A DNA stretch of 64,000 nt from a virus (taxonomy: Duplodnaviria > Heunggongvirae > Uroviricota > Caudoviricetes), in the IMG/VR virus record IMGVR_UViG_2700989400_000004, positions 6,939-70,938 of that record; one strand, given 5' to 3'. Within the stretch, counting starts at the first letter, position 1, and each line of letters starts with the position of its first letter. A program made the translations under genes and the position numbers. Positions 6,075-26,985 of this stretch are shown piece by piece. Below the pieces are notes generated by a model. The model was not told the origin of the DNA. It searched no databases and saw nothing but the letters and a program-made list of their open reading frames with translations.

Positions 6075-6983
6075 TTAACTTTGCAGATAGCCGCATTCTC
6101 GCCGGAATTGCGTGATTAATGACGCGGTCAGTGGTGTCTGGCGACTATCACGCCGCTGAATCAAATAATAGGCCGCTTTCGGTAAAATTTCGCTAACCGG
6201 CAACATCACCAGCCCCTGTCCGTGCAAGGGATCGCAGCCCATTTCTTCAGGCAGTATGCTGAGAAAATCGCTTTTTGCCACCAGACTGATACAGGCTGAG
6301 AACGTCTCGCAGACTACACCGACCTGTGGCGTTTGCGCCTGATCGTCAAGCAATTCACTCAACTGTTTGTAGTAGCTGCCGTGTGGCGTCGGCATTGTCC
6401 AGCTGTAATCCAGTAACTGTTTGATCGAACGGGCACCAATGGCGGGGTGTCCCGGGCGGCAAAAGATCGCGAATTGCTTTTCCAGTAATTTCTCAAAAGT
6501 AAATTCGTGGTCGTACGGTCCCTGATAATAGGTATTGATGGTGAAATCCAATTCTCCCTGACGCAATTCATTAATCATCGACACCAGTTGCCCTTCCATA
6601 ATGCGTACTTTTACCTGCGGATGCTGCTGATGAAAACGAGATATGACAGCTGGCATCAGACTGCGGGAAATACTGGCCCCCATGCCGATATTAATCTGCC
6701 CTGCCAGTTGCCCTTGTCGTTGGCGAATATCCTCTTGGGCTGCGCGCAGTTCTTCAAGAATAAGACTGGCGTGCTGATAAAAACTTTCACCGGCATCAGT
6801 TAACGTCACGCCTTTACTACGGCGAAAAAAGAGTTGCGCCGCTAATCCTTCTTCCAGCTCCTGAATAGATTTACTCAGTGCCGGTTGCGACATATTCAAC
6901 ATTCGGCTCGCTCCGCGAATGCTGCCCTGACGAGCCACTTCAACAAAAGCACGAATTTGATGAATTTTTACCTGAAAAGCCAT
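6075..6983 (-). CDS. abgR: LysR-family transcriptional regulator AbgR
   Basis: 302-aa ORF with N-terminal LysR HTH (…IRGASRMLNMSQPALSKSIQELE…) and substrate-binding domain; divergent from the abgA operon. Confidence 0.9.
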   Translation of the reverse strand: MAFQVKIHQIRAFVEVARQGSIRGASRMLNMSQPALSKSIQELEEGLAAQLFFRRSKGVTLTDAGESFYQHASLILEELRAAQEDIRQRQGQLAGQINIGMGASISRSLMPAVISRFHQQHPQVKVRIMEGQLVSMINELRQGELDFTINTYYQGPYDHEFTFEKLLEKQFAIFCRPGHPAIGARSIKQLLDYSWTMPTPHGSYYKQLSELLDDQAQTPQVGVVCETFSACISLVAKSDFLSILPEEMGCDPLHGQGLVMLPVSEILPKAAYYLIQRRDSRQTPLTASLITQFRRECGYLQS

Positions 6984-7158
6984 GACGCCACCGATAACCG
7001 TTATTTATCAGACCAAAGAAACTGGCATCTACTTTAATGCAGATGATTGTGTCAGGGTAATTTATGAACGGTTAAAACTGTGAAAAATCAGTTAGTGATA
7101 AGTAAAAACTATCGCTACGTGAACCGGGTCACACTTTTTACTGATGACGGGAAAGGTT

Positions 7159-8469
7159 ATGGAGTCTTTGAATCAATTTGTTAATTCGCTTGCCCCAAAA
7201 TTATCGCACTGGCGACGTGATTTTCATCACTATGCAGAGTCTGGCTGGGTGGAATTCCGCACTGCCACCCTTGTTGCGGAAGAATTGCAGCAGCTCGGCT
7301 ATTCACTGGCGCTGGGCCGCGAAGTAGTTAATGAAAGTAGCCGGATGGGACTACCTGATGAACTCACTCTACAACGCGAATTCGAGCGCGCTCGTCAACA
7401 GGGTGCGCTAGCACAATGGATTGCGGTTTTTGAAGGTGGTTTCACTGGTATCGTCGCCACCCTGGATACCGGTCGCCCCGGTCCGGTGATGGCTTTCCGT
7501 GTCGATATGGACGCGCTGGATCTCAGTGAAGAGCAGGATGTCAGCCATCGCCCCTACCGCGACGGTTTTGCGTCATGTAACGCCGGAATGATGCATGCCT
7601 GTGGTCATGATGGACATACCGCCATTGGGCTTGGGCTGGCGCATACCCTTAAACAATTCGAGTCCGGACTACATGGCGTCATCAAACTGATTTTTCAGCC
7701 TGCAGAGGAAGGTACGCGTGGCGCGCGGGCGATGGTCGATGCAGGTGTCGTAGATGATGTTGATTATTTTACTGCCGTGCACATTGGCACTGGCGTACCT
7801 GCGGGCACCGTGGTGTGCGGCAGTGATAATTTTATGGCAACCACCAAATTTGACGCGCACTTCACCGGTACCGCCGCTCACGCAGGCGCAAAACCAGAAG
7901 ACGGTCACAATGCCTTGTTGGCGGCAGCACAAGCCACTCTTGCACTGCATGCAATCGCCCCGCACAGCGAAGGAGCTTCCAGAGTAAACGTGGGCGTTAT
8001 GCAGGCAGGAAGCGGTCGTAACGTTGTTCCTGCCTCGGCGTTGCTGAAAGTGGAAACACGCGGGGCCAGCGACGTCATTAATCAATATGTTTTTGACCGT
8101 GCACAACAAGCGATTCAGGGCGCAGCAACCATGTATGGTGTCGGCGTTGAAACTCGTCTGATGGGTGCAGCTACCGCCAGTTCTCCTTCGCCGCAATGGG
8201 TCGCATGGTTGCAAAGTCAGGCGGCTCAGGTCGCGGGGGTCAATCAGGCCATTGAACGTGTTGAAGCGCCTGCGGGTTCCGAAGATGCCACATTAATGAT
8301 GGCCCGCGTGCAGCAACATCAAGGGCAAGCCTCCTACGTGGTGTTTGGCACACAGCTGGCGGCAGGTCATCACAACGAAAAATTCGATTTTGACGAGCAG
8401 GTTCTCGCTATTGCCGTCGAAACGCTGGCGCGCACCGCGCTCAATTTTCCCTGGACGCGAGGTATCTGA
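7159..8469 (+). CDS. abgA: p-aminobenzoyl-glutamate hydrolase subunit A (M20 peptidase family)
   Basis: Start at MESLNQFVNSLAPKL with GGGAAAGG SD; M20 metal-binding motifs (…MHACGHDGH…); stop overlaps abgB start. Confidence 0.9.
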   Translation: MESLNQFVNSLAPKLSHWRRDFHHYAESGWVEFRTATLVAEELQQLGYSLALGREVVNESSRMGLPDELTLQREFERARQQGALAQWIAVFEGGFTGIVATLDTGRPGPVMAFRVDMDALDLSEEQDVSHRPYRDGFASCNAGMMHACGHDGHTAIGLGLAHTLKQFESGLHGVIKLIFQPAEEGTRGARAMVDAGVVDDVDYFTAVHIGTGVPAGTVVCGSDNFMATTKFDAHFTGTAAHAGAKPEDGHNALLAAAQATLALHAIAPHSEGASRVNVGVMQAGSGRNVVPASALLKVETRGASDVINQYVFDRAQQAIQGAATMYGVGVETRLMGAATASSPSPQWVAWLQSQAAQVAGVNQAIERVEAPAGSEDATLMMARVQQHQGQASYVVFGTQLAAGHHNEKFDFDEQVLAIAVETLARTALNFPWTRGI

Positions 8470-9914
8470 TGCAGGAAATCTATCGTTTTATCGACGATGC
8501 GATTGAAGCCGATCGCCAACGTTATACCGATATTGCCGATCAAATCTGGGATCATCCAGAAACACGTTTTGAAGAGTTCTGGTCAGCGGAGCATCTGGCT
8601 TCGGCGCTGGAATCTGCAGGCTTCACCGTTACCCGCAACGTAGGCAATATCCCAAATGCCTTTATTGCTTCGTTTGGTCAAGGCAAACCGGTTATCGCCC
8701 TGCTGGGAGAATATGACGCCCTGGCAGGTTTAAGTCAGCAAGCAGGTTGCGCGCAACCTACATCCGTGACGCCCGGTGAAAATGGTCACGGTTGCGGACA
8801 CAATTTGCTGGGAACCGCCGCCTTTGCCGCTGCAATAGCCGTCAAGAAATGGCTGGAACAATATGGGCAAGGCGGCACAGTGCGCTTTTATGGTTGTCCT
8901 GGCGAAGAAGGCGGCTCGGGTAAAACGTTCATGGTCCGCGAGGGGGTATTTGATGATGTGGATGCGGCACTCACCTGGCACCCGGAAGCCTTTGCCGGTA
9001 TGTTCAATACACGCACGCTGGCAAACATTCAGGCATCATGGCGCTTTAAAGGGATCGCAGCACATGCCGCGAATTCCCCTCATTTGGGACGCAGCGCCCT
9101 TGATGCCGTAACGTTGATGACCACTGGCACCAACTTCCTCAACGAACATATTATTGAAAAAGCGCGCGTACACTATGCCATCACAGATAGCGGCGGGATC
9201 TCGCCCAACGTGGTCCAGGCGCAGGCAGAAGTGCTTTATCTTATCCGTGCCCCCGAAATGACCGACGTGCAGCATATTTATGATCGGGTCGCCAAAATCG
9301 CCGAATGTGCGGCATTGATGACCGAAACCACGGTTGAATGCCGCTTCGACAAAGCCTGTTCCAGTTATCTCCCGAATCGCACCTTAGAAAATGCCATGTA
9401 CCATGCCCTATCCCATTTTGGTACCCCGGAATGGAACTCCGAAGAACTGGCTTTTGCGAAACAAATTCAGGCTACGCTCACCCCCAACGATCGGCAAAAC
9501 AGTCTGAATAATATCGCCGCAACCGGTGGCGAAAACGGCAAGGTTTTTGCACTACGTCATCGTGAAACGGTACTGGCGAATGAGGTCGCTCCATATGCCG
9601 CCACCGATAACGTGCTTGCGGCATCGACTGATGTCGGCGACGTCAGTTGGAAACTGCCTGTTGCCCAGTGTTTCAGCCCCTGTTTTGCCGTCGGTACACC
9701 GCTACATACGTGGCAACTGGTTAGCCAGGGGCGAACATCTATTGCTCATAAAGGAATGCTGCTGGCGGCGAAAACTATGGCAGCAACCACAGTCAATCTC
9801 TTCATTGATTCAGGGCTATTGCAAGAATGCCAACAAGAGCATCAGCAAGTTACGGACACGCAACCGTATCACTGCCCTATCCCGAAAAACGTGACACCGT
9901 CACCTTTAAAATAA
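8469..9914 (+). CDS. abgB: p-aminobenzoyl-glutamate hydrolase subunit B (M20 peptidase family)
   Basis: 481-aa ORF with M20 signature (…GHGCGHNLLGT…), coupled to abgA. Confidence 0.9.
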   Translation: MQEIYRFIDDAIEADRQRYTDIADQIWDHPETRFEEFWSAEHLASALESAGFTVTRNVGNIPNAFIASFGQGKPVIALLGEYDALAGLSQQAGCAQPTSVTPGENGHGCGHNLLGTAAFAAAIAVKKWLEQYGQGGTVRFYGCPGEEGGSGKTFMVREGVFDDVDAALTWHPEAFAGMFNTRTLANIQASWRFKGIAAHAANSPHLGRSALDAVTLMTTGTNFLNEHIIEKARVHYAITDSGGISPNVVQAQAEVLYLIRAPEMTDVQHIYDRVAKIAECAALMTETTVECRFDKACSSYLPNRTLENAMYHALSHFGTPEWNSEELAFAKQIQATLTPNDRQNSLNNIAATGGENGKVFALRHRETVLANEVAPYAATDNVLAASTDVGDVSWKLPVAQCFSPCFAVGTPLHTWQLVSQGRTSIAHKGMLLAAKTMAATTVNLFIDSGLLQECQQEHQQVTDTQPYHCPIPKNVTPSPLK

Positions 9915-9950
9915 CAACAACAACGCAAACACAACAACCGAGGAATGCCC

Positions 9951-11396
9951 ATGAGTATGTCATCCATACCGTCGTCCTCCCAATCCGGGAAGCTCTATGG
10001 CTGGGTCGAAAGAATTGGTAACAAGGTTCCCCATCCTTTTTTGCTCTTTATCTATTTGATAATCGTACTCATGGTGACGACGGCAATTTTGTCAGCCTTT
10101 GGCGTCAGTGCGAAAAACCCGACCGATGGTACGCCGGTGGTGGTGAAAAACCTGCTCAGTGTGGAAGGATTACACTGGTTTTTACCCAATGTGATTAAAA
10201 ACTTTAGCGGTTTTGCTCCACTTGGAGCGATCCTGGCGCTGGTTTTAGGTGCCGGCCTAGCGGAGCGCGTCGGCTTACTGCCAGCGCTAATGGTTAAAAT
10301 GGCATCGCATGTTAATGCCCGCTACGCCAGTTATATGGTGCTGTTTATTGCTTTTTTCAGCCACATTTCTTCCGATGCGGCGTTAGTGATCATGCCACCG
10401 ATGGGTGCGCTGATTTTTCTGGCGGTGGGCAGGCATCCAGTTGCAGGTTTACTGGCTGCCATTGCAGGCGTAGGTTGCGGCTTTACGGCTAATTTACTGA
10501 TTGTCACAACCGACGTGTTGCTGTCGGGGATCAGCACGGAAGCGGCGGCTGCGTTCAATCCGCAAATGCACGTCAGTGTAATTGATAACTGGTATTTTAT
10601 GGCCAGCTCCGTAGTCGTACTGACGATTGTTGGCGGCCTGATAACCGACAAAATCATCGAGCCACGATTAGGTCAATGGCAGGGAAACAGCGATGAGAAA
10701 CTGCAGACATTGACCGAAAGTCAGCGTTTTGGTTTACGCATAGCAGGTGTCGTATCGCTACTTTTTATTGCTGCGATCGCGCTGATGGTGATCCCGGAAA
10801 ACGGGATATTGCGCGATCCGATTAATCACACCGTGATGCCATCACCCTTTATTAAAGGTATCGTGCCACTGATCATTCTTTTTTTCTTTGTTGTCTCGCT
10901 GGCTTATGGCATCGCTACCCGCACAATTCGACGTCAGGCGGATTTACCGCATTTAATGATTGAACCGATGAAAGAGATGGCGGGATTTATCGTGATGGTT
11001 TTTCCCCTCGCCCAATTTGTCGCCATGTTTAACTGGAGCAACATGGGGAAATTCATCGCCGTGGGGCTGACCGATATACTTGAAAGTTCAGGGCTTAGCG
11101 GCATCCCGGCGTTTGTCGGTCTGGCGTTGCTTTCCTCTTTCTTATGCATGTTTATTGCCAGCGGTTCCGCAATCTGGTCGATTCTGGCCCCCATTTTCGT
11201 ACCAATGTTTATGCTACTTGGCTTTCACCCGGCATTTGCGCAAATCCTCTTTCGTATTGCCGACTCATCCGTATTGCCTTTAGCGCCGGTATCTCCTTTT
11301 GTTCCACTGTTTCTTGGATTCCTGCAACGCTACAAACCAGACGCAAAACTGGGTACTTACTATTCGTTAGTCTTGCCCTATCCGCTTATCTTTTGA
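9951..11396 (+). CDS. abgT: p-aminobenzoyl-glutamate transporter AbgT
   Basis: Start MSMSSIPSS… with GAGGA SD; polytopic membrane protein; C-terminal end abuts the prophage boundary. Confidence 0.85.
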   Translation: MSMSSIPSSSQSGKLYGWVERIGNKVPHPFLLFIYLIIVLMVTTAILSAFGVSAKNPTDGTPVVVKNLLSVEGLHWFLPNVIKNFSGFAPLGAILALVLGAGLAERVGLLPALMVKMASHVNARYASYMVLFIAFFSHISSDAALVIMPPMGALIFLAVGRHPVAGLLAAIAGVGCGFTANLLIVTTDVLLSGISTEAAAAFNPQMHVSVIDNWYFMASSVVVLTIVGGLITDKIIEPRLGQWQGNSDEKLQTLTESQRFGLRIAGVVSLLFIAAIALMVIPENGILRDPINHTVMPSPFIKGIVPLIILFFFVVSLAYGIATRTIRRQADLPHLMIEPMKEMAGFIVMVFPLAQFVAMFNWSNMGKFIAVGLTDILESSGLSGIPAFVGLALLSSFLCMFIASGSAIWSILAPIFVPMFMLLGFHPAFAQILFRIADSSVLPLAPVSPFVPLFLGFLQRYKPDAKLGTYYSLVLPYPLIF

Positions 11397-11488
11397 ATGG
11401 GTAGTTTATTGTAAAATATATTTATATTCAATGCGTTATGTTTTATTTTTGATTTTGATTTATCAATTTGGTCACTATTTGGTACACA

Positions 11489-19242: not shown

Positions 19243-19947
19243 TCACCCTACCTTGCTGGAACCAGGGAAACAGGCGATCGGTAGCGCTGCTGGACGCGGG
19301 AAACGTAAACGACAACCGCTTAGGCGGTGACTGCATCTATCTAAATTCAGATCATTGGTTGGTACATCCTTATCAGTAGCCACCGGACCGCCAGAATACA
19401 TACATCCATCGCCCCTATATTGCCATTGACAAACATCCGCCAGGATAGTCCGGCCTGGGATAATCGCTTTATCTGCGTCAATCGGCGTTGATAACTCATA
19501 CTGAACCTGATCTGCTGTTTCTTCTGCCATTGCTTCAATGACGTAAAAAGATACAGCCTCAATAGATGGATCTGCGTCTGGATTGCCGTTAGGGAAGTTA
19601 ACGGCGTCCAGGTATTTAACCTCCACCTGGCGGCGCGTAACCTTCATTCCTCTAAGGTCGTTGAAATCGTTATTCATCCCCGTAATGAGTCCGCCGATAT
19701 TGGCTACAGCCATTTGAGGACGTGAATAAACGCCCTCGTTTTTCATTTCGAAGCCAGTAGCCTCGATCGGGTAGCTGTTGTAAGTTAATCCCTTCCAGAT
19801 AACCGGGCCGTAATAGCCATTCGCGCCGGAATGGAAGCGGATAACCTCGCCACCCAGGGGCGACAAGTCCAGTTCGAACAAGTCAATCACCGCGCCCACA
19901 CCAGCGTCCACGGAATCAATAATCATCTCTGTAGGTATATTGCGCAT
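19243..19947 (-). CDS. L: minor tail protein (lambda L-like)
   Basis: C-terminal Cys motif (…CQWQYRGDGC…CSHRLSGC…) as in lambda L; ATG at 19947 with GAAGGTGAG SD. Confidence 0.7.
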   Translation of the reverse strand: MRNIPTEMIIDSVDAGVGAVIDLFELDLSPLGGEVIRFHSGANGYYGPVIWKGLTYNSYPIEATGFEMKNEGVYSRPQMAVANIGGLITGMNNDFNDLRGMKVTRRQVEVKYLDAVNFPNGNPDADPSIEAVSFYVIEAMAEETADQVQYELSTPIDADKAIIPGRTILADVCQWQYRGDGCMYSGGPVATDKDVPTNDLNLDRCSHRLSGCRLRFPRPAALPIACFPGSSKVG

Positions 19948-20076
19948 TTTCTCACCTTCTGATTTTGTGATCTGCGTCACGCTAAATCATACCAAAATGG
20001 ATTGATCGCGGTTTATACAATATGTATATTTTACTCAAACGGAAGCACAGTTAACAAAATGGCGCGGAGGTGTGAG

Positions 20077-20232
20077 ATGGCTGATAAGGTGTGGAGGTTG
20101 AAGGTATTCCTGTCAGGTGGCAGGGAAATGACTGTAGCTCTGTATAAAGACGAAGGCGAGGCACTGACTGACGCGCTATTACTCACTGAAGACGAACGCG
20201 TTTTGGGGTACAGAATCGAACCTGTCAAATGA
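20077..20232 (+). CDS. hypothetical protein (moron, 51 aa)
   Basis: Opposite strand to tail operon; GGAGGTG SD 6 nt before ATG. Confidence 0.4.
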   Translation: MADKVWRLKVFLSGGREMTVALYKDEGEALTDALLLTEDERVLGYRIEPVK

Positions 20233-20244
20233 GAGGTTAACGAA

Positions 20245-20592
20245 ATGCAAAAATATAGTCTTGATGTGTGGTTAAGTGGTTGCAAGGAGTGTTTCGGATT
20301 ATTTGATAGCGAAGAGGCAGCTTTGGAAGAAGGAAGGATTCTTGAATGTAGTTTAGGCCATCCAGTGAAATATGCCGCTAATCCGGTGCAGATAATTGAT
20401 GAGGTGGAAAACATGAACCCGAAAGATATTAACTTTAACGTCAATGTTGAATTTGCTGATTCTATGGATCAGTCTTGCCCTGGTGAAATACACGTAAAAG
20501 GTTTCCCGGCAGACGACATGAAAGCGAAACATGAATACGAAAAAGCGGCGAAAGATTTCTGCATCGACAATCTGAGCGCGTTTAATAAATAA
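20245..20592 (+). CDS. hypothetical protein (moron, 115 aa)
   Basis: GAGAGG SD; protein-like translation. Confidence 0.45.
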   Translation: MQKYSLDVWLSGCKECFGLFDSEEAALEEGRILECSLGHPVKYAANPVQIIDEVENMNPKDINFNVNVEFADSMDQSCPGEIHVKGFPADDMKAKHEYEKAAKDFCIDNLSAFNK

Positions 20593-20601
20593 GGCGGCAA
20601 T

Positions 20602-20850
20602 ATGGCGCGGCGTAATCACGGGGATTATGTGTACACGTTGAAACAAGCCGCCCGCCTTATTGGCTATCATGAGCATGAATTTATTGATTTGCTGATTGAG
20701 CGCGGGATTCTGTACCAGGTTTGTTTAACGTTGTACCCAAAAGCTAAATACCTACAGGAAAAATTATTCATCATCATGACGGATGAAAACCAAGTTAATC
20801 ATTCATTCGTCACTGACAGGGGCGTTAATTATCTGCGTGATAACTTATAG
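20602..20850 (+). CDS. hypothetical protein, possible HTH (moron, 82 aa)
   Basis: AAGG SD; helix-turn-helix-like stretch YTLKQAARLIGYHEHEFIDLLIERGIL. Confidence 0.45.
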   Translation: MARRNHGDYVYTLKQAARLIGYHEHEFIDLLIERGILYQVCLTLYPKAKYLQEKLFIIMTDENQVNHSFVTDRGVNYLRDNL

Positions 20851-20859
20851 GCGGTAATT

Positions 20860-20931
20860 ATGGATGAAGTAATCGAAAATGTTTTGGTAGTGGCTGGCGC
20901 GATTGCCATCGTTTATGCCTTTCTGAATTAA
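20860..20931 (+). CDS. micro-protein, single hydrophobic helix (23 aa)
   Basis: MDEVIENVLVVAGAIAIVYAFLN; AGGCGG SD. Confidence 0.3.
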   Translation: MDEVIENVLVVAGAIAIVYAFLN

Positions 20932-20942
20932 TGGGGTGAATC

Positions 20943-21080
20943 ATGAAAATTGAAGTTTTAGCACTAATAGCAATGGGCTTGATAGTATTTGGCGTGCACG
21001 CTGCGGATTGGGACTGGTGCGCAATAGCTGAGAACATGGCGCACGCTCACCCAATAGGCTTGATGCACATGAACTTCTAA
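20943..21080 (+). CDS. small exported or membrane-anchored His-rich peptide (45 aa)
   Basis: MKIEVLALIAMGLIVFGVHA / ADWDWCAIAENMAHAHPIGLMHMNF: signal-peptide-like N-terminus with VHA-A site; GGGGTGA SD. Confidence 0.4.
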   Translation: MKIEVLALIAMGLIVFGVHAADWDWCAIAENMAHAHPIGLMHMNF

Positions 21081-21084
21081 CACG

Positions 21085-21110
21085 AAAAACCCCGCTTCGG
21101 CGGGGTGTTA
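21085..21110. terminator. intrinsic terminator (UUCG tetraloop hairpin)
   Basis: CCCCGC-TTCG-GCGGGG; T-run on minus side, A-run on plus side. Confidence 0.45.
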
Positions 21111-21124
21111 TAGGTAGGTGAGAC

Positions 21125-21301
21125 ATGAAAGAAGGTGTGACTTATCAGCATGTGTATACATTTGAAATTTACCGCATATGTGATGGTTATGTTGAAGAGT
21201 ATAAAATCTTCCCCCGTGGATACTGGAAGAGAGTTAAGATTTCTGTAAGGTTATTAAAGAAAATGTTTAAAAGAGGATTAATTCAAGAAATTGATTTTTA
21301 G
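21125..21301 (+). CDS. hypothetical protein (moron, 58 aa)
   Basis: AGGTGAGA SD; basic C-terminal half. Confidence 0.4.
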   Translation: MKEGVTYQHVYTFEIYRICDGYVEEYKIFPRGYWKRVKISVRLLKKMFKRGLIQEIDF

Positions 21302-21308
21302 TAAACAA

Positions 21309-21337
21309 TAAGGGGGTTACCCCCCTTATTGTTTTAT
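21309..21337 (+). terminator. intrinsic terminator ending plus-strand moron island
   Basis: AGGGGG-TTA-CCCCC hairpin followed by ttattgttttatttg. Confidence 0.45.
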
Positions 21338-21617
21338 TTGTCGTGACGACTTTCTATTTCATAGATGATCGCCATTCCTACCGCGATAATAAATACCATT
21401 ACCAAGCCATCAACCAGCATATTAAACGCCCTCAATCAAGAATAAATATTCCTTCCCTTCGTAAGATCTGCATCCCACATACCCGTCGCCGTAGTCATGC
21501 AGATACCAGGTGTTCCCCTTATCACTCACCACTGTGAGATTATCGATCTGGTAGTCTTCGAATAGCGTAAATGATTCATCGCCAGTCTTAACGCACATCC
21601 CGTACATATTGCCCCCT

Positions 21618-21971
21618 TTAATTCATCACTTGCTCAAACATCGCGGTTAGCGTGAATACGGGGCCATCCTTCGTCATGTTCCATTTTCGGCAGACAAAAA
21701 GCCTTTGCACTCCATCCATCGACGGCGACCAGTAAAACGCCTCGACCGCGCCGCGCGCCCGTAAAAACGCCTCCGCCTGGATCGCTGGATTGCCAGCGTC
21801 ACCGCATCCGGCGCTCGACCCCTTAAAAACCACGCTGTAATCGTCGAGCAAGGGATTAATCCCTTTAACCTGGCGTTGCTCATAGCCATCACCCAGCTTG
21901 ACGACCGACACGTTCGGCTCCCTGGTTACGCTGTAGCTACGCTGCGGCGTCCAGGTAAACACTTCCGGCAT
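21618..21971 (-). CDS. M: minor tail protein (lambda M-like)
   Basis: 117 aa; conserved …LGDGYEQRQVKGIN… and C-terminal …FEQVMN as in M-family proteins. Confidence 0.7.
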   Translation of the reverse strand: MPEVFTWTPQRSYSVTREPNVSVVKLGDGYEQRQVKGINPLLDDYSVVFKGSSAGCGDAGNPAIQAEAFLRARGAVEAFYWSPSMDGVQRLFVCRKWNMTKDGPVFTLTAMFEQVMN

Positions 21972-22004
21972 AATTCCCCCTATAAATTACATTTTGTATA
22001 CATC

Positions 22005-22030
22005 TTTACGCGCTTCTACGCGAAAAATGA
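22005..22030 (-). promoter_or_regulatory. conserved ~26-nt element upstream of M (copy 1 of 2)
   Basis: TTTACGCGCTTCTACGCGAAAAATGA here vs TTTACGCGTTGCTACGCGGAAAATAG at 35175-35200 upstream of portal; both followed (minus orientation) by SATGTATWCA then the start codon. Confidence 0.35.
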
Positions 22031-22140
22031 GAACTTCATCACAAGAATTATAACCAGTTTACAAAATGGCTTCACACAGGACGCAACAAGATGTATACAG
22101 AAAGCAAGAAGAAAAGCAGTACCAACAAAGGAGGCCCAAG

Positions 22141-22308
22141 ATGAAACGCAACGATAAACACTACGCGGTCGTAATGCTTAATAACGCATTTGAACAAGTA
22201 GAAGTGGCGATCGTTAAAGGCTTTGATGATGCATTCAAAATGGGCCAGTTCTACATGAACGTGAAGGAAAACGAATACCGGGATTTCTACCTGAAAGCGG
22301 TCAACTAA
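22141..22308 (+). CDS. hypothetical protein (moron, 55 aa)
   Basis: Strong AGGAGG SD 8 nt before ATG at 22141. Confidence 0.4.
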   Translation: MKRNDKHYAVVMLNNAFEQVEVAIVKGFDDAFKMGQFYMNVKENEYRDFYLKAVN

Positions 22309-22325
22309 GGATGATGGGGTGAGCT

Positions 22326-22580
22326 ATGAAACTGGTAGCGATTGATAAAAATTTGAAGGTACAGAAAAACGCGCAGGACCGGATCATCAAAAAGGGTAAG
22401 GCTTTATTAAATGCTTTCCTGAAAAAAGAAGCTCACCCCAAAAAGTTACGCGATGGTTACGGTTATAAATTTGATATCAACCCCGATTGGCGGTTATTCA
22501 GCGATGATTTGAAGGTGTGGTTAATTATCGAGCATCATTATTATAATGTTAAATGTGGGGTTAAGGGGGCGCATAAATGA
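22326..22580 (+). CDS. hypothetical protein (moron, 84 aa)
   Basis: GGGGTGAG SD; lysine-rich protein-like ORF. Confidence 0.45.
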   Translation: MKLVAIDKNLKVQKNAQDRIIKKGKALLNAFLKKEAHPKKLRDGYGYKFDINPDWRLFSDDLKVWLIIEHHYYNVKCGVKGAHK

Positions 22581-22814
22581 GATGGCGTGAATTACATAGC
22601 TACGGCATCCGGTTTTCCCTGGTTGTCCTGAAAGATTGGTTTAATCGCCAGGTGGCAAACGATGCGTTAATCCCGTTTGCTGATAACAAGCCTTATAAGC
22701 GCGATGGGGTGAGATATGGAAGATGATAAATTTACATGGCGGGAGATCTGGAATATTTGGCAGGTAATTTTCGGAAGGGGATATATTGCGCGGAATGGTC
22801 GATTGTAGAGGTAA

Positions 22815-22997
22815 ATGATGATTATTCATGAAACGGAAGAATGTCGGCGGATTAATCTTAGTATTGAGTATGACGAAAGATTATGGCTTGAAAGCGACTG
22901 CGAAATAATCGTAATAGACAAAAAGCAAGCCGCCGAACTGATAAGCGCATTACAGCTTTATGTAAACAACGAATTTAAAAATGACGAAGTTGAATAA
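22815..22997 (+). CDS. hypothetical acidic protein (moron, 60 aa)
   Basis: GAGGT SD; followed by terminator. Confidence 0.4.
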   Translation: MMIIHETEECRRINLSIEYDERLWLESDCEIIVIDKKQAAELISALQLYVNNEFKNDEVE

Positions 22998-23003
22998 AGA
23001 AAA

Positions 23004-23040
23004 CCCCCAGCTTTCGCCGGGGGTATTATTTTATTTTTTG
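23004..23040. terminator. bidirectional terminator between moron island and tape-measure gene
   Basis: CCCCC…GGGGG hairpin followed by tattattttattttttg. Confidence 0.4.
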
Positions 23041-25916
23041 CGCGGTTGTAACATGCCACCGGGGCGTGTGCTTTGTTCCCTAACTACCCCCATAGCCACG
23101 CGTTTCATTGTGTCTTCAAGTCTGCGGCTATCCTCATCACTAAAACCGTTTGTCGTTTGAACGGTAATACTAACAGGCATGTTGATGCTGCCACCACCGC
23201 CCAAGTCGCGGTTAGGAGTAATACGCCCACCTTCACCGGGGATTATGTACTGTTTCCCGCCAGTAGTGGTAAACAGCTCCGGTTTACCGTGCTCACCAAC
23301 CCTATAAAGATTGCCGCCATTAACCGCACCGCCGTTGTAGCGTCCGCCACCGAAAATGGACGTCGCCAGCGACATGATTGCAGACAATGCCGCCGCACCA
23401 GCCGCCGCCCAGCTACCGCCAGTTGCCGCCGCCGTCGCCGCCGCCGCCGGGGCCGCCGCCGCTGCAATCTGACCTTGCGCCGCTACCGCGCCCGCCGTGG
23501 TGCTGGCTTGCGTTGCCTTGCTCTGACTTTCCATCATGATTTGGTCGGCTATCCAGTTTGCTGCAATCTGAGATAAGCGGTTGCCTACCGTGCCGAGAAT
23601 GTTGCTACCCAGGTTAGCAAACATCTCGCTTAGGGATTGTGTGCCGTTGAGCAATCCGGTAATGGCGTTACCCATGCCGCTTGTTAAGCCGTTGACGCAA
23701 TCGCCGATAAGCGCGTTAGTGTCGCTTTGCGCTTGCCATTGCTCCCACTTAAGCGCGGTTAGCTGTTGTTCATAGGCTAACTCTTCCATTTTCAATTGGG
23801 CCTGTGTAGCGCCTAAATCAGTGAGCATTTGCTTTCTGATAGTCCATTCATTTTGCAACTGCTGAATAGGGTCTACCTGGCCTTTTTTCTTGTCTTCATC
23901 AGAAACAAGGCTATCCCATTTGGCTTGTTGTTCTTCCTCGCGTAGCTGTTTCAGCGTGTCAGACAACGCCTTGCTTGCGCCCTCCTTCGCGGCTGTATAT
24001 TCCAGATAAGTGATCTTACCTTGCTTGTACGCTGCATCCAGGGCTTTTTGTTCTTCGCCAAGTTTACGCATAGCGGCGGCGTCTTTGTTGTACTGGTCGG
24101 AAATATTTAAGCCTTCATCGCCTAACTTATCCCAATCGGATTTTTTCGACTTCTTGCCCTTCCCGTCCTTGCCGCCACTGCCACCGCTGCCGCTTCCCGT
24201 TCCGGTTGGTTTCGGCGGAACATATGTACCATTAATACGGGCTTGTGCTTCGTCGGCTTTCTCGTTGGCTTTTTCAAGGTTTTTATTAGCCGTGTCTAAC
24301 TTACCTTCTAAGGTCTTCTGAGTATCCCCGGCGACACCTAGCGCCGCTTTTGCAGGTCCGGCAATTTCTGGATCATCACTCTGCGCTAATTTTTCCAGGA
24401 TGGCGCGGTTTTTCACCATGCGATCCAGTTCGGCTTTTGCCTTCCGGGCGTTTTCCTCAATGTCTTTGAGTTGTTTGTTTATCTCAATCAAAGCCGCTTC
24501 CAGTTCATTTTTGCTCATATCGTCGAACGACATAGCCAATTCGTCGATTTTGGCTTTTGCGTTGGCGGCTTTCTCTTCAGTGCTTTCCATGTTAAGGATA
24601 AGCGTACCCAGGCAGATCGCAGCGGTCATGATTGCGCCAGCGGGGCCACCAAGTAACCCTAACGCGCCATTGAAGATCCGCATCCCGATGCTGGCGGCTT
24701 TTGCTGCTGTACCGGACGCAACGATTGCCGCGTTAGCCGTGGTGGCAGCGGTGCGCATAGTCGTGTAAGCGGCGGCGGTTTGCGCTTGCGCTACACGGAG
24801 GCGAGCAAGCGCGGCGGTGTGGGCGTTTGTACCCTGCGCGGCCTGGTAGTGGGCGCGGGCCTCCCCTTCTGCCTGCAATGCTGCTTTAAGTCCGGCGGCG
24901 GCTGTGTGTAGCTGCTGGCGTGCCAGGTTGGCTTCTGCTGCTGCCTGCTGCGCGGCGGCCTGTGCTGCTTTCTGGTTGGCGGCTGCCAGCCGGATGTTTT
25001 CCGCCGTTGCCTGGATGATGCCACCTAACGCCCGTCCACCCATTACAGCACCAAGTGCAATGGCGGAGGCGGTTACAACGTCCAGGTTTTCAGATAGGGT
25101 GATCAGCGTGCTGTTAAACGCGTTAATCCCGCTACGGATCACAGAGTTTTCACCAAAATACTTAGTCGCGTTGTTGGTGGCAACTGTGAAGGCATCCGAC
25201 ATAGTGATCGCCATATTGTCGAACTCTTTATCTACTTCGGACTTCATCGCCCGGACCGCTGCGATAATTATATCTTTCGTGATCTTGCCGTCCTTCGCCA
25301 TTTCACGCAATGCGGTACTGGATACGCCCATTGATTTTGCGATACCTTCCGCCAGGCGTGGCGCGTTCTCCATTACGCTATTGAATTCATCGCCGCGCAA
25401 TTCACCAGATCCCAAGGCCTGGGCCAATTGTCTGATCCCGCCTTCCATTTCGCTTGCGGATGCGCCGGACACCTGAAAGGATTTGTTAATCGTTTCCACG
25501 ATGCTTGCCAGGTCACGCCCGCTTAGTCCGCTGTCACGCGTTGCGCGTTCCAATTTGGAGTAAAGCGCGGCGGTCGCATCCAGTGGTGACATTGATTTCT
25601 GTGCGGCCTTAAAAACCCGGTTTGTAACTTCTTCCAGTGATTCATTTGACCGGACGGAGTTAACCAGCTTGTTGTTTACTTCTTGCCAGGCGTTGGCGTA
25701 CTCAATGATCTTTCTTGTCACCAATGCCGCACCAACCGCGCGGGCAACCGTGGATAGGCTCGCCAGGGATTTACTTGCCTTATCAGCGGCGGTGTCTACC
25801 CGTTGCAGGTCTTTTTCCATCGCTCCGGTTGCCTTGTCTACTTCTTTCTGTGCAACCAGTAGCGATCCGGTTTTGGCGTCGATCGTGTATTCAATCGCGC
25901 CTACATTTTTAGCCAT
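23031..25916 (-). CDS. tail tape measure protein
   Basis: ~960-aa coiled-coil Ala/Gln-rich ORF with Gly-rich segment; ATG at 25916 (MAKNVGAIEY…) with CGGAGA SD. Confidence 0.8.
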   Translation of the reverse strand: MAKNVGAIEYTIDAKTGSLLVAQKEVDKATGAMEKDLQRVDTAADKASKSLASLSTVARAVGAALVTRKIIEYANAWQEVNNKLVNSVRSNESLEEVTNRVFKAAQKSMSPLDATAALYSKLERATRDSGLSGRDLASIVETINKSFQVSGASASEMEGGIRQLAQALGSGELRGDEFNSVMENAPRLAEGIAKSMGVSSTALREMAKDGKITKDIIIAAVRAMKSEVDKEFDNMAITMSDAFTVATNNATKYFGENSVIRSGINAFNSTLITLSENLDVVTASAIALGAVMGGRALGGIIQATAENIRLAAANQKAAQAAAQQAAAEANLARQQLHTAAAGLKAALQAEGEARAHYQAAQGTNAHTAALARLRVAQAQTAAAYTTMRTAATTANAAIVASGTAAKAASIGMRIFNGALGLLGGPAGAIMTAAICLGTLILNMESTEEKAANAKAKIDELAMSFDDMSKNELEAALIEINKQLKDIEENARKAKAELDRMVKNRAILEKLAQSDDPEIAGPAKAALGVAGDTQKTLEGKLDTANKNLEKANEKADEAQARINGTYVPPKPTGTGSGSGGSGGKDGKGKKSKKSDWDKLGDEGLNISDQYNKDAAAMRKLGEEQKALDAAYKQGKITYLEYTAAKEGASKALSDTLKQLREEEQQAKWDSLVSDEDKKKGQVDPIQQLQNEWTIRKQMLTDLGATQAQLKMEELAYEQQLTALKWEQWQAQSDTNALIGDCVNGLTSGMGNAITGLLNGTQSLSEMFANLGSNILGTVGNRLSQIAANWIADQIMMESQSKATQASTTAGAVAAQGQIAAAAAPAAAATAAATGGSWAAAGAAALSAIMSLATSIFGGGRYNGGAVNGGNLYRVGEHGKPELFTTTGGKQYIIPGEGGRITPNRDLGGGGSINMPVSITVQTTNGFSDEDSRRLEDTMKRVAMGVVREQSTRPGGMLQPRKK

Positions 25917-26046
25917 AGCGTTGATCTCCGTTTTTGTGATCTGTGTAACTATTTTATACAAAATGGCTTTGCTTTAACGACTCCATTTTGTATAAAGAAG
26001 CCATAGGGAATAGGTAGTTAAACAAACAAGTTAAGTGGGGTGGGTT

Positions 26047-26229
26047 ATGAACGTATACGAAGCCATCAGAAATATTAGAAATATCGAGAAAAATGTAGGT
26101 AACGAGGCGGCGCAAGAAGAATGCAAAATGTACATGAAGAAGCTACCACGCCGTGAACAATTTGTTTTGGGTGGCCCTAGCCTAGCGATGGAATTCGCAA
26201 GATTAAGAAAAGAAATGCTCAATAACTAA
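26047..26229 (+). CDS. hypothetical protein (moron, 60 aa)
   Basis: GTGGGGTGG SD; charged helical peptide upstream of lipoprotein gene. Confidence 0.4.
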   Translation: MNVYEAIRNIRNIEKNVGNEAAQEECKMYMKKLPRREQFVLGGPSLAMEFARLRKEMLNN

Positions 26230-26247
26230 TATTTAACTGGGTGAAAC

Positions 26248-26985
26248 ATGAAAAACGTAATTAAAGCGGCTCTTATTGGTGTTATGGCTTTCGGTCTTGT
26301 AGGTTGCGCACCTTCATATTCAGAGCAAGTAAAAGCAATAGAAAAAGGCGTGCTAATGCTGGATAAAACGGGGGTTAACAAGGATGCATGGAAAGTAAAA
26401 GCAGATGATTATGTCGCCGATTGCAACAACCTTAAGAGATACAAAGGAAAAACAGGTGAAACCGCCGTACTATTATGCGAACTAATCATCAAAGAAGATG
26501 AACTAACAGAAAGCGGACTATATACAAGCGCGGCTAACCTCGGCGTCGATATAGCGGGCCTTTATGATGTACTAAGTAATAAAAATTCAGCCGCTGCATT
26601 ATCAGCCGAACGTGTAGCAAAACTTGTGATAAGTGCTAATAAGTCAGCATTTCGCAATAGACAACAAGTTATAGAAAATGAATGCCGCGGCTTTATGGAT
26701 AAAAACTTTAAAGGCTGGAGTGAGTTAAACCCTATAGATGACGAAATTTATAATAATTGCCGGAATGCCGCAATGTTCTCTGATGAAAGCAAAAACAGAA
26801 TGGGGAGCATAATTTCTACAACGCTCGCATATAGAGTAAGACACCTCGATCAAAAAACAAAAACAAATGTATTAACTAACGCATTCATAGCAGTTCAGGC
26901 AGGCTGGAGTATAGGGAATGGATATCACGCCGTAAAACCGACTCCGGCAGAACTACAAGCGATTGCGCTACGCGATGCAAAGTGA
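26248..26985 (+). CDS. lipoprotein (moron, 245 aa)
   Basis: Signal peptide plus lipobox MKNVIKAALIGVMAFGLVGC; GGGTGA SD; opposite strand to tail operon; followed by strong terminator. Confidence 0.6.
   Translation: MKNVIKAALIGVMAFGLVGCAPSYSEQVKAIEKGVLMLDKTGVNKDAWKVKADDYVADCNNLKRYKGKTGETAVLLCELIIKEDELTESGLYTSAANLGVDIAGLYDVLSNKNSAAALSAERVAKLVISANKSAFRNRQQVIENECRGFMDKNFKGWSELNPIDDEIYNNCRNAAMFSDESKNRMGSIISTTLAYRVRHLDQKTKTNVLTNAFIAVQAGWSIGNGYHAVKPTPAELQAIALRDAK

Follow-up and report, generated by a model that had tools for sequence, protein, structure and literature searches.

In lambda, the tail genes H and M are adjacent, and temperate phages such as the P2-like phages are known to carry hotspots of accessory and defence genes. 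Two described systems that are close to the locus studied here are the morons, defined by Juhala and Hendrix (reviewed in PMC3594210), of which HK97 gp15 is an example located in the tail operon (PMC3594210), and paaA2-parE2, a prophage ParE toxin-antitoxin pair whose antitoxin has no DNA-binding domain and which has been proposed to limit rearrangements (PMC8630535). We analyzed a 64-kb stretch of the IMG/VR record IMGVR_UViG_2700989400_000004 (positions 6,939 to 70,938; the whole stretch is called the window), in which a low-GC insert of 1,059 bp separates the stop of the tail tape-measure gene (23031) from the start of the minor tail gene M (21971). This insert is very probably a self-contained accessory operon, or moron island, at the tape-measure/M hotspot of an mEp021-type temperate siphophage integrated in E. 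coli. The account that best explains the locus as a whole, which we favor with some reserve, is that of an accessory operon with a toxin-partner module made of its first two genes, A55 and ParE84.

The insert between the tape-measure gene and M

Five genes, closely packed on the plus strand and antiparallel to the tail operon, make up the island and encode proteins of 55, 84, 49, 30, and 60 amino acids (aa). The GC content of the island is 0.41, and that of the tail genes on either side is 0.50-0.54; its GC skew has the inverse sign, and no long open reading frame (ORF) crosses the region on the minus strand. The island and its boundaries comprise the following features:

21618-21971, minus strand: minor tail protein M, 117 aa (Pfam PF05939 Phage_min_tail, E 2.9e-28), the left boundary of the island.
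21972-22140, no strand assigned: conserved non-coding control region (the leader), ~170 bp, between M and A55.
22141-22308, plus strand: A55, 55 aa, with AAGGAGG 7 nt upstream.
22326-22580, plus strand: ParE84, 84 aa, 17 nt after A55, with a conserved Shine-Dalgarno (SD) sequence.
22577-22726, plus strand: o49, 49 aa, with an ATGA overlap with the ParE84 stop.
22716-22808, plus strand: o30, 30 aa, overlapping o49 by 11 nt.
22815-22997, plus strand: o60, 60 aa, the last gene of the island.
23003-23024, both strands: hairpin of a bidirectional intrinsic terminator that bounds the island on the right; the stop codon of the tape-measure gene (23031-23033) is 6 nt away.
23031-25961, minus strand: tail tape-measure protein, 976 aa, the right neighbor, whose homologues are annotated as tape measures.

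By the pattern of substitutions in relatives, all five island ORFs are real genes under purifying selection. We collected 38 related loci from seven sequenced phages, one E. coli prophage (90.6% identical), and 31 IMG/VR contigs, and computed the pooled Nei-Gojobori ratio of nonsynonymous to synonymous differences (pN/pS) over all pairs of distinct sequences, with 5-31 distinct sequences per gene. The ratio is 0.27 for A55, 0.15 for ParE84, 0.14 for o49, 0.11 for o30 (pS 0.72), and 0.51 for o60, the last value being inflated by ungapped comparison of divergent members; pS across the five genes is 0.4-0.7. An overlapping 31-aa frame at 22736-22831, by comparison, gives 1.01 and was rejected as coding. 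The five ORFs, unlike this frame, are thus constrained as proteins, and their SD sequences and coupled starts are conserved among relatives. An initial annotation of the window had described three genes of 55, 84, and 60 aa plus two overlapping frames; all five lie where it placed them, and its count has to be raised to five, since the frames of 49 and 30 aa are also genes. The same annotation had allowed that the ORFs might prove spurious, a concern that the ratios of 0.11-0.51 dispel.

The annotation had also pointed to repeated ribosome-binding contexts, and we find the same. The window contains two copies of GATGGGGTGAG and no more, at 22313-22323 and 22703-22713, 390 nt apart, each copy stopping 2 nt before an ATG: the first before that of ParE84, the second, which falls inside the 3' end of o49, before that of o30. 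With one mismatch allowed, the chance expectation is 0.73 and at least two matches occur in 17 of 100 shuffles, and both real copies are exact. We read GATGGGGTGAG as a Shine-Dalgarno context because the same G-rich stretch precedes the 84-aa gene in relatives. A 20-nt inverted repeat around two TGTATACA palindromes was considered as a conserved operator pair and rejected because its upstream copy is non-palindromic in relatives. The bidirectional terminator that had been proposed to abut the tape-measure stop is there: the hairpin folds at -14.6 kcal/mol on the plus strand, followed by UAUUAUUUUAUUUUUU, and at -19.0 kcal/mol on the minus strand, followed by UUUUCUUUAUU, so that U-tracts follow in both directions. 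The genomes of mEp021, mEp554, mEp515, and mEp010 have annotated terminators at this position as well. A search of Rfam returned no family in 19900-23200.

The window is a segment of the E. coli chromosome with a prophage of the mEp021 / mEpimmI group, and its host flank at 7100-11400 is abgABT, 100% identical to many E. coli strains. Across the region, DNA identity is 78-81% to mEp010, mEp013, mEp021, mEp044, mEp515, and mEp554; identity to the E. coli RM9245 prophage is 90.6%. M is 80-95% identical to the M proteins of mEp021-group phages, and the gene order L-island-M-island-tape measure is common to the window and the genomes of the group. Passages of PMC11893012 describe the group as Nus-dependent temperate siphophages, and a term search of the main text of that paper found no discussion of the island. 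Annotations of published mEp phages and RefSeq prophages already list the island genes, either as hypothetical or as 'ParE family toxin-like', and the genes are uncharacterized.

Within the group, gene content divides into a fixed core, A55 and ParE84, and exchangeable cassettes, o49, o30, and o60, a division that goes beyond the initial annotation. As the first 38 loci were seeded with ParE84, its presence in 38 of 38 is circular, and we therefore retrieved 80 further loci through M, of which 30 have an M at least 80% identical and 50 are sister-group contigs with an M 70-73% identical. ParE84 is present in all 30 of the former and A55 in 28. Around this core, the 38 loci display ~16 gene-content architectures, with o30 in 20, o60 in 16, a 58-aa gene in 15, and o49 and a 95-aa hydrophobic protein in 5 each, and with a bare A55+ParE84 pair only in 11; a single other contig (L008) shares the arrangement of the window. 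Further cargo at the junction includes an HNH endonuclease and zinc-finger/T5orf172 proteins. As for the cassettes of the window, o49 is basic (isoelectric point, pI, 10.3), and o30 is a Trp-rich microprotein that is an annotated coding sequence in several mEp phages; neither has a match in Pfam, NCBIfam, PHROG, or PADLOC. The acidic o60 (pI 4.4) belongs to PHROG 13627 (E 6e-9), a family of unknown function, and has relatives ~41% identical in phages Sf11 and BS5; Pfam, NCBIfam, and PADLOC give no match for it. For the five island proteins together, PADLOC yields nothing below E 0.01.

The sister group supplies the empty sites, in line with the earlier suggestion of extra DNA where lambda has none. 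Of its 50 contigs, 19 have a closed junction, the stop of the tape-measure gene overlapping the start of M. The remaining contigs (within L081-L130) hold unrelated single small genes at the junction, on either strand, among them a 70-73-aa same-strand protein (MEYQIEDITAYDN…), a 79-aa opposite-strand protein (MAAPSNELLNGLAVK…), and a 132-aa opposite-strand membrane-type protein. Empty sites together with differing inserts in sister phages make the junction a general insertion hotspot, and cassettes are presumably exchanged there by homologous or illegitimate recombination. The moron reading of the initial annotation is supported by these traits: extra DNA, a GC content of 0.41, the opposite strand, an own terminator, and conserved coding. 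Most of the hallmarks in the definition given by PMC3594210 are thereby present.

ParE84, its partner A55, and the readings of the pair

A second point beyond the initial annotation is that the 84-aa gene is predicted to be ParE-like. ParE84 matches the ParE-like toxin domain PF24732 of Pfam over residues 19-75 with E 8.3e-12 and 45.4 bits (gathering cut-off 24.4); its remote relatives P0092 and P0094-P0097 also score above the threshold of this family, and RefSeq names the homologues of ParE84 'ParE family toxin-like protein'. The protein is basic (pI 9.8). In the alignment of the divergent family, K40, L41, G46, R56, and H70 are invariant and Y/F73-N74 nearly so. Two motifs, KL.G...[YW]R[LV] and H..[YM][ND], look to us like the strand-and-tail pattern of ParE/RelE; the tail formed by H70 and Y/F73-N74 presumably resembles the ParE 'LH..M[DN]' tail. 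Gyrase poisoning and RNase activity are both compatible with this likeness of the tail motif.

The family is very small. A word-indexed search of 5.8 billion clusters finds 42 clusters with ParE84 and 49 with A55, in both cases almost all from ~53-55-kb contigs or E. coli, and an exhaustive search of 1.84 billion representatives with a ParE84 profile hidden Markov model (HMM) finds only 9 proteins at E<1e-3. A search of genome contigs with P0094 adds one partial match (L039). All relatives with an examined context sit in phage records, viral contigs, or phage-like gene arrays, so far as the searches reach, and PF24732 thus appears almost only in phage or phage-like contexts. No mention of PF24732 was found in a literature search. 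In phiKp_21 and two similar contigs (L044/L048/L042), the ParE-like gene is always preceded by a conserved protein of 116-118 aa unrelated to A55.

A55, the gene upstream, belongs to PHROG 29810 (E 3e-30), a family of unknown function, and has a pI of 6.5. Neither Pfam, NCBIfam, and PADLOC nor a profile search of PDB sequences returns a match for it. Its AlphaFold2 (AF2) model is one long helix (pLDDT 85, pTM 0.43). In two loci, L016 (IMGVR_UViG_3300045988_046788) and L021 (2561511241_000005), at positions ~2330-2500, a short alternative leader with its own SD sequence (AAGGGGGAT) takes the place of A55 and is fused directly to the ParE-like gene; both loci carry o30 downstream.

ParE84 also contains a candidate anti-SD element, placed as follows:

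22430-22440, plus strand: AGCTCACCCCA, codons 35-39 of ParE84, an inverted repeat and perfect complement of the gene's own SD region at 22315-22325.

The Pro38 codon within it, at 22437-22439, is the rare CCC in every one of the 30 distinct relatives; no other fourfold-degenerate codon of ParE84 is invariant. RNAalifold recovers the GGGG-CCCC pairing in 14-16 of 16 sequences, and the minimum-energy fold (-35.2 kcal/mol, z -2.2) contains the SD/anti-SD helix. Covariation cannot support the helix because its core never varies. The helix fits translational throttling of a toxin-like gene, AGCTCACCCCA being a possible anti-SD; alternatively, these bases could belong to a weak hairpin on the minus strand, which annotations based on ARNold call a terminator in mEp phages.

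From these elements we propose a working mechanism. Five translationally coupled genes would be read from the conserved leader abutting M to the bidirectional terminator, and A55/ParE84 would most likely act as a toxin-partner module expressed from the prophage. ParE84, as a small basic protein resembling the ParE/RelE superfamily, may be a growth-inhibiting effector; its target would, by analogy with ParE, be gyrase, and an RNase-type activity is conceivable too. A55, neutral, probably helical, 51-55 aa long, and lacking a DNA-binding domain, would hold the effector in check, and the SD/anti-SD helix may additionally throttle its translation. The benefit could be stabilization of the prophage or hotspot, or abortive defence against other phages, and the cassette genes may add further functions of use to the lysogen or against phages.

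Two explanations would deny the island its accessory character altogether. It could be supposed that the plus-strand ORFs have arisen by chance, in a spacer without coding function or in the antisense of tail-gene DNA, given that they are very short (30-84 aa) and that four of the five have no Pfam family; the contrast between their substitution ratios and that of the overlapping alternative frame, the conserved SD sequences and coupled starts, the PHROG matches of three of the five genes, and the lack of a long minus-strand ORF leave this idea hardly any credit. It could also be supposed that the genes are not morons and serve tail assembly or the virion, in view of their location inside the tail gene cluster and of the universality of A55 and ParE84 in the group. 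Such a role in morphogenesis is very improbable: the genes run on the opposite strand with a different GC content and their own terminator, the distal ones are freely present or absent, sister phages with a 70-73% identical M have no insert, and the passages retrieved from PMC11893012 on mass spectrometry of the mEp021 virion do not mention them.

Within the accessory operon, how A55 and ParE84 relate is a harder question. A number of observations weigh against the toxin-partner account. A single HMM carries the ParE assignment: the AF2 model of ParE84 is poor (pLDDT 66), Foldseek finds no matches with it, the ParE84 alignment, run as a profile against all PDB sequences, finds no ParE or RelE, an hhalign comparison with E. 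coli RelE is not significant (E 0.12), and NCBIfam and PADLOC have no match. A55 has no DNA-binding domain of the RHH, Phd, or HTH kind found in the autoregulating antitoxins of type II modules. A55 is cleanly absent from L016 and L021, where ParE84 is intact with every conserved residue. In Mantel comparisons, A55 correlates with M (r 0.68) and less so with ParE84 (r 0.26), no better than ParE84 does with M (r 0.24); the distances of A55 follow M rather than ParE84, which means that the two genes recombine apart. Neither a consensus scan of the leader nor a position weight matrix (PWM) finds a strong plus-strand sigma-70 promoter for the island. The distant PF24732 proteins are encoded in one-directional small-gene arrays of virulent phages (Sortsne, Alcyoneusvirus phiKp_21, and 101-kb and 140-kb contigs), with a T7 gp0.4-like gene as a neighbor and with neither an A55 homologue nor a known antitoxin domain beside them. 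ParE84 might accordingly be viewed as a stand-alone effector, working without an antitoxin, by which the phage takes over the host or counters its defences, with A55 and the other genes merely co-transcribed and the island perhaps expressed mainly in lytic growth. The early-type arrays, the two temperate relatives that keep ParE84 without A55, the weak co-evolution of the two genes, the tiny and phage-bound family, and the near-consensus promoter TTGACA-N17-GATAAT that the relative in the 140-kb viral contig L040 (1930-2000) has to itself all speak for this alternative. We nevertheless consider it rather unlikely. In 28 of the 30 loci retrieved without bias, A55 lies directly beside ParE84 and is coupled to it, and the two by themselves make up the complete, minimal island in 11 loci; a basic protein (pI 9.8) and a neutral small partner (pI 6.5) in antitoxin-first order, with near-universal co-occurrence, fit a toxin-partner pair and the usual type II layout; and an opposite-strand position with an own terminator inside a late operon is typical of morons expressed in the lysogen (PMC3594210). 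That A55 and ParE84 form a true toxin-antitoxin-like pair is, for its part, a tentative reading whose chances we judge to be somewhat short of even; a classical toxin-antitoxin pair is plausible and unproven.

Control sequences and the surrounding tail genes

The leader looks like a control region. Among 33 distinct relatives, its alignment contains long invariant blocks, and indels of 1-2 nt rule out coding on either strand; it is more conserved than the synonymous sites of the island genes. Two frames within it were rejected as coding: an 80-aa N-terminal extension of A55 from 22066, which is broken by indels of 1-2 nt in relatives, and a hydrophobic 30-aa antisense ORF at 22059-22151, which is interrupted by frame-breaking indels. 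The leader yields two candidate promoters:

22071-22099, plus strand: best candidate rightward promoter, TTCACA (22071-22076)-N17-TATACA (22094-22099).
22047-22075, minus strand: candidate leftward promoter facing M, found by PWM, with -10 TATAAT (complement of 22047-22052) and -35 GTGAAG (complement of 22070-22075).

The putative rightward promoter is weak by PWM (score 7.5) and is missed by the consensus scan; in relatives, its hexamers are conserved and its 17-nt spacer varies in sequence and is fixed in length. The leftward site, GTGAAG-17-TATAAT, scores 11.1 and is one of 67 sites in the window that score at least 10; its -10 element, read as ATTATA on the plus strand, is invariant in 33 of 33 distinct relatives. 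A comparable minus-strand sigma-70-like site, TTGTTA-18-TAAAAT (20028-20057; PWM ~11.1), faces L, so that both plus-strand islands carry a minus-strand promoter-like site at their promoter end, facing the next tail gene. These leftward sites could restart transcription of the tail genes M and L after the bidirectional terminators of the islands, or they could instead be by-products of AT-rich DNA. A promoter-like sequence on the plus strand inside o30, TTGGCA-19-TATATT (22757-22787), scores 11.2 and has a poor 19-nt spacer; this predicted promoter, just upstream of o60, could express the o60 cassette independently.

A more speculative synthesis would join several of these threads. PF24732 proteins would be ParE-like effectors that usually have no cognate antitoxin; in mEpimmI prophages, they would be silenced by a new helical partner, A55 (51-55 aa), together with the SD/anti-SD helix at the invariant rare CCC, and the leader would be a back-to-back promoter pair at which transcription of M begins again, downstream of the island's own terminator behind the tape measure. 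We give this synthesis little weight, and regard it as an unlikely conjecture in its full form.

The tail genes around the island lie on the minus strand in the order tape measure, M, L, then K, I, and J, with L placed as follows:

19243-19980, minus strand: tail gene L.

Directly downstream of M, at 21422-21607, lies a 61-aa minus-strand gene that is conserved and annotated in all mEp phages (e.g., mEp021_70); it has no Pfam match, and we know of no lambda counterpart. Within the tape-measure gene, stretches with a GC content of 0.60-0.65 at 23200-23600 and 24600-25200 encode Ala/Gly-rich runs and give rise to long spurious plus-strand ORFs (e.g., 23073-23576 and 24904-25476).

Two other plus-strand blocks interrupt the tail genes. 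At the L-M junction (20002-21334), an island contains ORFs of ~55-76, 115, 82 (with a KilAC/ANT domain, E 4e-6), 45, and 58 aa; its TTGATC-17-TATATT at 20002-20030 is the second-best promoter-like site of the whole window, and it ends in a strong bidirectional terminator at 21303-21334 (-21 and -23 kcal/mol). A third low-GC block at 26035-26985, between the tape measure and a DUF6246 gene, has a 64-aa ORF and a 245-aa protein without a Pfam match, whose N-terminus (…GLVGC) looks like a lipoprotein signal and whose RM9245 homologue is named 'type VI secretion system-associated protein TagO' in RefSeq; this block occupies the position of the HK97 gp15 moron.

Comparison with known systems

Among the systems introduced at the outset, HK97 gene 15 and the morons in general are alike in being extra DNA in a lambda-like tail operon next to the tape-measure gene, with deviant GC content, an own terminator, absence from related phages, and small genes of the host-benefit type. 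The island differs from gene 15 in having five genes rather than one, in running antiparallel to the tail operon, and in showing no homology to gp15/YebO; two of its genes are fixed group-wide and are no longer 'extra' within the group, and its promoter is a candidate and its expression from the prophage putative.

The paaR2-paaA2-parE2 module of the cryptic lambdoid prophage CP-933P of E. coli O157:H7 shares with the island a prophage-borne ParE-type protein that follows a small partner without a DNA-binding domain, in a variable prophage region, the setting in which limiting rearrangements was proposed for it (PMC8630535). The two modules differ in sequence, with no similarity detectable in the profile search of all PDB chains. 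These chains presumably include the ParE2 and PaaA2 structures. The island also differs in having no third regulator gene and in lying in the tail operon rather than the immunity region; its partner is missing in 2 of 30 relatives, and toxicity and neutralization are putative. Classical parDE and relBE type II modules resemble the pair in antitoxin-first order, close spacing, and a basic protein of ~85-100 aa. They differ in that A55 has none of their antitoxin domains (RHH, Phd, or HTH), the ParE-like fold of ParE84 is putative, the pairing of the partners is not obligatory, and virulent phages, in which addiction would be pointless, also carry relatives of ParE84. With members that have a partner gene and members that lack one, this very small family of ParE-like proteins is convenient for asking whether such proteins serve as addiction modules or as stand-alone effectors in phages.

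The hotspots of temperate phages, together with integron-like cassette arrays, offer the broadest comparison. The island differs from these in that none of its cargo matches a known defence system in PADLOC and in having no integrase or attC-type recombination machinery. It shares with them a fixed address between two conserved genes, short similar junction sequences, and a wide choice of cargo, among which are HNH and T5orf172 nucleases, proteins with zinc fingers, and small membrane proteins. The junction is an ordinary, well-defined accessory-gene hotspot and no new kind of system, and current views are not overturned by it. With ~70 related loci and empty-site comparators, and with even the frames of 30 and 49 aa at the junction being real genes, the island is a clean and comparatively rich example of how accessory genes colonize one fixed joint of a lambda-like tail operon.

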